64,000 bases of DNA from the NCBI RefSeq assembly GCF_057098645.1, contig NZ_CM169472.1. One strand, 5' to 3'. Both the position numbers and the translations under genes were made by a program. Shown one piece after another: positions 56,665 to 58,824 of this stretch (position 1 is the stretch's first letter; every line of letters begins with the position of its first letter). Below the pieces are notes generated by a model that ran no database searches, was not told the origin of the DNA, and worked only from the letters and a program-made list of their open reading frames with translations.

Positions 56665-57846
56665 ATGCATAACTCCCCCGCAGTCTCCAGCGCGAAATCG
56701 TTTGACCTGACCTCGACGGCGTTTTTAATCGTTGCCTTTCTCACCGGTATTGCGGGCGCTCTGCAAACCCCGACACTCAGTATTTTTCTTACCGATGAAG
56801 TACATGCCCGTCCGGCGATGGTGGGATTCTTCTTTACCGGCAGCGCTGTCATTGGGATTCTGGTGAGTCAGTTTCTCGCCGGGCGCTCTGATAAGCGCGG
56901 CGATCGCAAATCGCTGATTGTCTTTTGCTGCCTGTTAGGCGTGCTGGCCTGCACCCTTTTTGCCTGGAATCGCAACTACTTTGTTTTGCTATTCGTTGGC
57001 GTCTTTCTTAGCAGCTTTGGCTCGACCGCTAACCCGCAAATGTTTGCCCTTGCCCGTGAACATGCCGACAAAACCGGACGTGAGGCGGTGATGTTCAGCT
57101 CTTTTTTACGCGCTCAGGTTTCACTGGCATGGGTCATTGGCCCACCGCTGGCTTATGCCTTAGCGATGGGTTTCAGCTTTACGGTAATGTATCTGAGCGC
57201 AGCGGTAGCGTTTATTGTTTGCGGCGTGATGGTGTGGCTGTTTTTACCGTCGATGCAAAAAGAGCTTCCGCTGGCGACCGGCACGGTTGAAGCGCCGCGC
57301 CGTAACCGTCGCGATACGCTGCTGCTGTTTGTCATTTGTACATTGATGTGGGGCTCGAACAGTCTGTACATCATCAACATGCCGCTATTTATAATCAACG
57401 AACTGCATCTTCCCGAGAAACTGGCCGGTGTGATGATGGGGACCGCCGCCGGGCTGGAAATCCCGACCATGTTGATTGCCGGATATTTTGCCAAACGTCT
57501 GGGTAAGCGTTTCTTAATGCGCGTTGCTGCCGTGGGTGGCGTCTGTTTTTACGCAGGAATGCTGATGGCGCATTCACCTGCCATTCTGTTGGGCTTGCAG
57601 CTGCTAAATGCTATTTTTATTGGCATTCTGGGCGGCATCGGGATGCTCTATTTTCAGGATTTGATGCCCGGTCAGGCAGGTTCAGCCACCACGCTCTATA
57701 CCAACACGTCGCGCGTGGGCTGGATCATCGCAGGATCTGTAGCGGGCATCGTCGCCGAGATCTGGAATTATCACGCTGTGTTCTGGTTTGCGATGGTGAT
57801 GATTATCGCCACTCTGTTTTGCTTACTGCGGATTAAAGATGTTTAA
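56665..57846 (+). CDS. setB: MFS sugar efflux transporter
   Basis: 393-aa 12-TM MFS transporter, divergent from fruBKA. Confidence 0.88.
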
Positions 57847-58097
57847 GGCGCGGTCAGCATTTCCAGATCGATAAGCCAGGTCATTGCCTGCTGACGCGAG
57901 TTACCGCACATTTCAGCGCTGGCTTGTAAGCCTGCACAGACTTTCGGCCGCAGTGGCGAGGTGAAAATTTTACAGCGTTGCTGTTCATCAAGCTGAATGC
58001 AGGGCGTATTGGCGGGCTTGCCATCTGGCATGCCGGGAATAGGGCTGGAAATTGAAGGGGCAGTGCAACACGCCCCGCAACCCGGACGGCATTCCAT
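57843..58097 (-). CDS. yeiW: Cysteine-rich small protein (84 aa)
   Basis: Internal ATG giving [26 protein letters not shown]... with 8 Cys. The ORF track extends it to 128 aa, so the start is ambiguous. Confidence 0.55.
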
Positions 58098-58251
58098 ACG
58101 TTGTTCTCTTAAGGTTAACCACCGGATTGATGAGCGCGCACAGTACCACCTTTTTTGCACCAGCAAAAGTGCGAATACCACTTGCCCGAAAGGCCCGTCG
58201 CGAGTACTTTGTCGCGATATTTTTGACATTTTCGACTACAGGAATTTTTCG

Positions 58252-58824
58252 ATGCCAAGAGCGAACGAAATTAAAAAAGGTATGGTACTGAATTACAACG
58301 GCAAACTGCTGCTGGTTAAGGACATTGATATTCAGTCGCCCACTGCCCGCGGTGCCGCTACGCTGTACAAAATGCGTTTTTCTGATGTCCGTACCGGGCT
58401 GAAAGTAGAAGAGCGTTTCAAAGGAGATGATATCGTTGACACCGTGACGCTGACCCGCCGTTACGTTGACTTCTCCTATGTCGATGGCAACGAATATGTC
58501 TTTATGGATAAAGAAGACTATACCCCGTATACCTTCACCAAAGATCAGATTGAAGAAGAGTTGCTGTTTATGCCAGAGGGCGGCATGCCGGACATGCAGG
58601 TGCTGACCTGGGACGGTCAACTGCTGGCGCTTGAGCTGCCGCAGACCGTTGATCTGGAAATCGTTGAAACTGCACCAGGCATCAAAGGGGCATCTGCCAG
58701 CGCCCGTAACAAACCGGCGACATTGAGCACTGGTCTGGTGATTCAGGTACCAGAATACTTAAGCCCGGGCGAAAAAATTCGTATCCATATCGAAGAACGC
58801 CGTTATATGGGGCGTGCTGACTAA
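58252..58824 (+). CDS. yeiP: Elongation factor P paralogue
   Basis: 190-aa translation [30 protein letters not shown]... is EF-P-like. ATG at 58252 fits the known length. Confidence 0.88.

Follow-up and report, generated by a model that had tools for sequence, protein, structure and literature searches.

The yeiW gene of Escherichia coli is very probably translated from its annotated start codon, downstream of a control region shared with yeiP

Where does the small cysteine-rich gene yeiW begin? The question is raised by a locus in a 64 000-nucleotide stretch of DNA (the window) that comes from E. coli; positions 57700-58400 match E. coli O145 RM9872 with 100% identity, and of 5426 complete E. 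coli genomes 5413 contain them. The listing of open reading frames for the minus strand gives a frame of 128 codons that begins with an ATG (57843-58229), the product of which would start MSKISRQ, and an internal in-frame ATG at 58097 leads to a product of 84 amino acids. The first-pass annotation described both forms, and observation confirms it in this. It further held that the sequence could not decide between the two starts, nor say whether the product is secreted or binds metal. The frame lies between setB (56665-57846, plus strand), which is convergent with yeiW, and the divergent gene yeiP, or efpL (58252-58824, plus strand), beyond which lies yeiQ (from 59038, plus strand). Profile matches identify yeiP as the gene of an EF-P paralogue, with scores of 340.7 bits for TIGR02178 and 305 bits for NF003392 (EfpL). 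The yeiW coding sequence of 84 codons plus stop runs from 58097 to 57843 on the minus strand, as supported by the RefSeq annotation, a match to PF03692 and 80 orthologous loci, and the 44 further in-frame codons occupy 58098-58229. The upstream ATG at 58229 is separated by 22 nt from the yeiP start codon at 58252, and of the 154 bases between the genes 132 thus belong to the extension.

The 84-residue start is already known, and is used by both RefSeq and Swiss-Prot. The 84-residue sequence is exactly that of the Swiss-Prot entry YEIW_ECOLI ('UPF0153 protein YeiW') and of WP_000389030.1 ('YkgJ family cysteine cluster protein'), and it occurs on at least 1000 contigs. In the RefSeq annotation of RM9872 yeiW is a 255-nt coding sequence of 84 amino acids between setB and yeiP, and in that of K-12 the same coding sequence is b4502, a 'putative metal-chelating domain-containing protein'. 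The exact 128-residue sequence is found on 30 contigs, in older submitter annotations. Forms of 62-73 amino acids have also been deposited for some E. coli and Shigella (records P0124, P0128, P0129, P0131 and P0133), one short Shigella dysenteriae record carrying the name 'proteinase inhibitor'. A 62-residue form would fit a start at Met23, and would suggest 5′ disruptions or pseudogenization in Shigella lineages. Supplements to published papers on translation initiation sites and N-terminomics yielded no entry for yeiW, and a full-text literature search for b4502 gave only irrelevant matches.

How unusual is an open frame of this length? When the 154-nt intergenic sequence was shuffled 20 000 times, 44 or more codons were open in 7.3% of the shuffles, and 3.7% combined this with an in-frame ATG 30 or more codons upstream. 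The 128-codon open frame is within what chance can produce; genes number in the thousands per genome, so such extensions are to be expected in many of them.

The start is conserved in relatives. A protein search returned 3403 clusters, and the best 120 of these, which span Escherichia, Citrobacter, Klebsiella, Leclercia, Pantoea, Erwinia, Tatumella and Cronobacter, are nearly all of 84 amino acids. The few longer calls among these 120 have N-terminal extensions that are mutually unrelated in sequence. Since annotation is partly circular, we also compared the DNA of 80 orthologous loci from gamma- and beta-proteobacteria, extending from Enterobacterales to Burkholderiales and Lysobacter, with 63-99% identity at the protein level. 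Homology to YeiW starts at residue 1 in these loci (residue 3 in two of them), bearing out the claim of the first-pass annotation that the conserved product is an 84-residue protein with eight cysteines beginning MECRPGCG. At the position of residue 1, 66 of the 80 loci have ATG and one has GTG; the remaining loci, mostly of beta-proteobacteria, have an ATG 2-7 codons upstream of this position. In 27 loci with the homologous ATG or GTG there is no in-frame start at all between this codon and the preceding stop, and in many Enterobacteriaceae (Citrobacter, Leclercia, Superficieibacter, Pantoea stewartii and others) an in-frame stop lies 0-5 codons upstream. The extension is closed even in the nearest sister lineages, by a TAC to TAA change at codon -15 in the divergent 'E. 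coli' SCPM-O-B-8794 (locus L005) and by TGG to TGA at codon -16 in E. albertii. The two closures are independent; the TAA allele occurs in none of the complete E. coli genomes. The Pfam domain PF03692 begins at residue 2 of the 84-residue form, and the extension contributes no domain.

The pattern of variation within the extension is that of non-coding sequence. In an alignment of the yeiP-yeiW intergenic region from 22 Enterobacteriaceae (alignment A3), the yeiW coding sequence is strongly codon-periodic, with mean column entropies of 0.39, 0.31 and 1.32 at codon positions 1, 2 and 3. The corresponding values for the extension are 0.93, 0.99 and 1.08, with no codon periodicity, and its length differs between genera by numbers that are not multiples of three. 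Conservation within the extension is confined to two blocks separated by variable, indel-rich sequence, and the blocks resemble promoters for yeiP and yeiW placed back to back. Neither coding conservation in relatives nor a ribosome-binding site for the upstream ATG, the marks of a genuine N-terminally extended proteoform, was found.

Could E. coli nevertheless make a lineage-specific isoform of 128 residues from the ATG at 58229, perhaps beside the 84-residue form, in which the extension serves as a signal or membrane anchor? We regard this as very unlikely. The open frame and its ATG are present in some 98% or more of the 5413 complete E. coli genomes, the long form has been deposited on the 30 contigs noted above, and the extension has a hydrophobic stretch behind a basic N-terminus (Kyte-Doolittle value of 2.5 at residues 14-24). 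But the intergenic region as a whole hardly varies within the species, which is why the frame remains open across E. coli: over 171 nt, 5312 of the 5413 genomes are at least 99% identical, and K-12, which has the same order setB-yeiW-yeiP-yeiQ and the same 154-bp intergenic region, is identical to the window. Such invariance is what is expected of a promoter region and is uninformative on coding. The comparison of the upstream frame across strains that the first-pass annotation had proposed was thus of little use within E. coli, while in its relatives the frame is closed or shifted. Against the long isoform stand the stops in the sister lineages, the absence of coding-type conservation, the length changes that are not multiples of three, and the 7% of shuffles that yield frames as long as this. 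The upstream ATG has no Shine-Dalgarno sequence (anti-Shine-Dalgarno duplex, +0.9 kcal/mol). Lying 22 nt from the yeiP start codon, it could be carried only by a transcript that begins inside yeiP or its 5′ UTR, and the conserved promoter-like elements are downstream of it. Of the three E. coli variants sampled within the extension, two are non-synonymous changes and the third is a deletion of 2 nt in strain 1442 (GCGCGCTCATC to GCGCGCATC, equivalent to about 58127-58131 of the window, in what would be the yeiW 5′ UTR). The deletion puts the upstream ATG out of frame and leaves the yeiW annotation intact; it is known from one genome only, and may be an error of sequencing.

What, then, does the extension contain? 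On the minus strand a purine-rich Shine-Dalgarno-like AAGAGAA (58104-58110) lies 6 nt before the annotated ATG, and most genera have either AAGAGA(A/G) or GGAGG 6-9 nt before the yeiW ATG. The anti-Shine-Dalgarno duplex is weak in E. coli, at -2.9 kcal/mol. Further upstream on the same strand, the conserved block B contains TGgTACTGT (58140-58148), a putative extended -10 element for yeiW that was assigned by its conservation. TGnTAnnnT occurs inside this block in 21 of the 22 Enterobacteriaceae of the alignment, separated from the ATG by 29-54 nt, with differences between genomes that are not multiples of three. A yeiW promoter placed here would be expected to initiate near 58132-58134. The second block, block A (about 58181-58223), reads on the yeiP strand as CTTGCC-N17-TAnTTT followed by the invariant, GC-rich GnCGCGATATTTT. 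It would provide yeiP (efpL) with a putative sigma-70 promoter at 58182-58210 of the plus strand, having a -35 element TTGCCC (58182-58187), a 17-nt spacer and a -10 element TACTTT (58205-58210). The core elements, GGCAAG and AAAnTA on the yeiW strand (the latter TAnTTT on the yeiP strand), are invariant or nearly so in the alignment. The first-pass annotation had expected the extra codons to overlap the yeiP promoter region, and they do overlie this putative promoter. A scan of 57700-58400 against the sigma-70 consensus called no promoter site; both candidates are weak relative to consensus, and we assign them from phylogenetic footprinting alone.

The arrangement of these elements bears on the other in-frame starts. 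Initiation in E. coli at GTG -21, TTG -23 or GTG -28 would generate a protein of 105-112 amino acids, and the anti-Shine-Dalgarno duplexes of these codons (-2.6 to -3.4 kcal/mol) are comparable with that of the annotated start. However, the codons are not conserved, most orthologous loci have stops nearer to the ATG, and the stops in L005 and E. albertii fall between these codons and the coding sequence. They lie, moreover, upstream of the conserved TGnTACTGT, within variable or promoter blocks, and we find such a start scarcely credible. Indeed all the upstream in-frame starts of E. coli (ATG -44, GTG -28, TTG -23 and GTG -21) are 5′ of block B, so that if transcription begins just downstream of TGnTACTGT, as we infer, all four would be absent from the mRNA.

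There is published evidence for promoter activity in this region. In the construction of a vanillin biosensor, the 'yeiW promoter' was cloned as a fragment extending from just after the yeiP start codon to a point just before the annotated yeiW ATG; it conferred 4.3-fold vanillin-inducible expression of GFP, and the array data showed a 9-fold rise for yeiW itself (PMC5291986, including Tables S1 and S2). A promoter directed towards yeiW must therefore lie within the extension, and since only some 22 nt of the fragment precede the upstream ATG, that promoter must initiate downstream of this codon. A perfect inverted repeat, TTTTGC-ACCA-GCAAAA (58153-58168), which overlaps the putative yeiW promoter in its -35 region, is found in Escherichia and largely in Citrobacter, and is absent from the other genera of the alignment. 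The repeat is a possible operator, perhaps connected with the reported induction by vanillin. A marbox-type site was also considered as the source of the induction, and was rejected because the fit to the consensus, judged by eye, was poor.

Block A includes a near-invariant stretch of 25 nt, CGCGAGTAnTTTGnCGCGATATTTT on the plus strand (58199-58223), where the column entropy is near 0 in the 22 genomes. The scan marked it as a stem-loop with a run of T after it; two CGCG palindromes flank the putative yeiP -10 element, and the GC-rich part is placed just downstream. Conservation of this degree far exceeds what a weak -10 element alone would need. The stretch could be the site of a regulator, or a discriminator of the stringent-control type in the efpL promoter. 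An Rfam search of the region including it gave no match.

The stops in sister lineages, the absence of codon periodicity, the indels that are not multiples of three and the promoter-like blocks together decide in favour of the annotated ATG, and the first-pass annotation was mistaken in holding the start to be undecidable from sequence. As a whole, the explanation that we favour with high confidence is that YeiW is an 84-residue protein translated from 58097, that the extension is a shared promoter region, and that the product is a cytoplasmic, metal-binding protein of the PF03692 family. On this explanation the 44 upstream codons would be non-coding, forming most of a 154-bp divergent control region common to yeiW and yeiP, and the frame would lack a stop in E. 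coli by chance. The yeiP promoter would be located beside yeiP and the extended -10 promoter of yeiW some 42 nt upstream of the yeiW ATG, giving yeiW a short 5′ UTR of variable length with a purine-rich ribosome-binding site. The long open reading frame of some older GenBank records would then be an over-extension into the divergent promoter region. This is an ordinary ambiguity of a start codon, and carries little weight beyond annotation hygiene.

How general is the pairing of yeiW with yeiP? The two genes are divergent in 39 of the 80 loci, all of them in Enterobacterales. In Bordetella, yeiW follows a DUF218 gene and is surrounded by glycosyltransferase genes, and in Ramlibacter it is divergent from mnmG (gidA). 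We rejected a functional link between EfpL and YeiW based on adjacency, since the pairing is confined to Enterobacterales and the neighbours are different elsewhere. In Serratia (loci L092/L093, 4473-5717) the divergent pair is split by the gene of a Trp/Tyr permease placed between yeiP and yeiW, and genes resembling torA and torC come after the setB homologue.

On the other side of the gene, the stop codons of the convergent setB and yeiW overlap by 4 nt (TTAA, 57843-57846) with no intergenic terminator, and the same geometry is present in more than 20 other loci of Enterobacteriaceae. The pair is among the 'excludon' candidates drawn from RNA-seq data (PMC12288877). In Salmonella setB is separated from yeiW by opvAB, a phase-variable operon acquired by horizontal transfer (PMC12902445). 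E. coli strain C5 (NZ_CP010122.1, 1-2583 of the extracted locus, corresponding to about 58014-58097 of the window) has a genomic island inside yeiW itself; the insertion falls in the invariant PIPGMPxGKP region, past about codon 28, and all that survives beside yeiP is the 28-codon 5′ remnant. The island has genes for a DUF4236 protein, a hypothetical protein, an HTH regulator and a protein of the reverse transcriptase family, together with a full-length 84-residue yeiW homologue that is 66% identical to the native protein. This is suggestive of a mobile or defence element that has yeiW as its target and brings a substitute copy with it. Taken with opvAB, the C5 island suggests that the junction of setB and yeiW (at about 57843) is a recurrent point of insertion.

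The 84-residue protein is itself highly conserved. It has cysteines at positions 3, 7, 10, 11, 33, 42, 54 and 64, and all eight are invariant across 65 orthologues that share 64-94% identity. The segment PIPGMPxGKPA is invariant or nearly so in the same set, and between the gamma- and beta-proteobacteria identity is still 64-70%. The match to PF03692 (33.5 bits, E = 7e-8) aligns residues 2-60 with positions 1-72 of the 85 in the profile. YeiW qualifies as a member of the PF03692/YkgJ family by a score above the gathering threshold of 23 bits, an N-terminal motif ending in CC and further conserved cysteines. A search of the NCBIfam HMMs with YeiW gave no match at E <= 0.1, so that the RefSeq family name must come from other evidence. 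An AF2 model of YeiW is moderately confident, with a pLDDT of 79.5 for the best model and 50-57 for the other four.

Is YeiW exported? The 84-residue form has no hydrophobic segment, the maximum Kyte-Doolittle value over 11 residues being 1.17, so nothing points to secretion; the sole hydrophobic stretch of the 128-residue frame is in the extension, and is absent from the shorter form. We considered the possibility of a secreted cysteine-rich peptide and rejected it, as hydropathy and the sequence reveal no signal peptide or export signal. The choice between secretion and metal binding, which had been thought beyond the reach of sequence, can thus largely be made: the absence of both signal peptide and hydrophobic segment, the PF03692 match and the invariant cysteines all favour metal binding. 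On the identity of the metal itself we argue by analogy. Overall, the interpretation of the first-pass annotation is supported in part.

Which metal might YeiW hold? The most likely identity is that of a small Fe-S or zinc protein of the cytoplasm rather than a secreted peptide. Of the two, by analogy, an Fe-S cluster is the more likely, with C3, C7, C10 and C11 as its ligands. The protein would be a miniature PF03692 domain having the motif C3-x3-C7-x2-C10-C11 at its extreme N-terminus followed by four invariant cysteines, and the cluster, by comparison with the flagellin-modifying protein FliB, would be of the [4Fe-4S] type. The position of the start matters to such a reading, as the cluster ligands begin at residue 3; with a metal-binding motif at the very N-terminus, N-terminal tags or a wrong start would probably be disruptive. 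Zinc is a serious alternative. Eight cysteines suit two tetrahedral sites, and the K-12 RefSeq entry goes no further than a putative metal-chelating domain, so that YeiW could have two structural Zn(Cys)4 sites, or else disulfides, and act as a zinc-ribbon-like adaptor and not as a redox protein. On the other hand, FliB is the sole characterized protein with a comparable motif, and has a [4Fe-4S] cluster with iron alone (PMC8598068). Moreover, some sources name YeiW an 'Fe-S-cluster containing protein', and disulfides are unlikely in the cytoplasm for a protein with no export signal. On this balance we consider zinc or disulfides possible, with the odds against them. We propose equally tentatively, as one possibility among others, that YeiW is a free-standing 84-residue [4Fe-4S] protein with a fold that has no solved relative, induced under aromatic-aldehyde (vanillin) stress and serving as a small redox sensor or as an electron-transfer partner of some conserved target. 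No biochemistry of YeiW was found in the literature. Small, unusually well conserved and with no structural relative, it is a reasonable target for such work.

FliB is a much larger enzyme, the gene of which lies beside flagellin genes. In the Salmonella protein an N-terminal CX4CX3CC motif binds one oxygen-sensitive [4Fe-4S] cluster; the motif is required, and the protein contains iron and no other metal (PMC8598068). We considered whether YeiW might be a flagellin lysine-N-methyltransferase like FliB, and rejected this since the cysteine spacing, the length of 84 residues and the neighbouring genes all differ. How then does YeiW compare with known systems? It is the same gene as yeiW of E. 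coli K-12, with no differences. Measured against PF03692, the CxxCxxCC model, it is essentially the bare domain in 84 amino acids. Like FliB it has an N-terminal cysteine motif that ends in CC and eight conserved cysteines, and the FliB motif is related to PF03692 (PMC8598068). The spacing is CX4CX3CC in FliB and CX3CX2CC in YeiW. Unlike FliB, YeiW is too short to accommodate a catalytic domain, and its gene is flanked by setB and yeiP, in a setting that has no flagellar genes.
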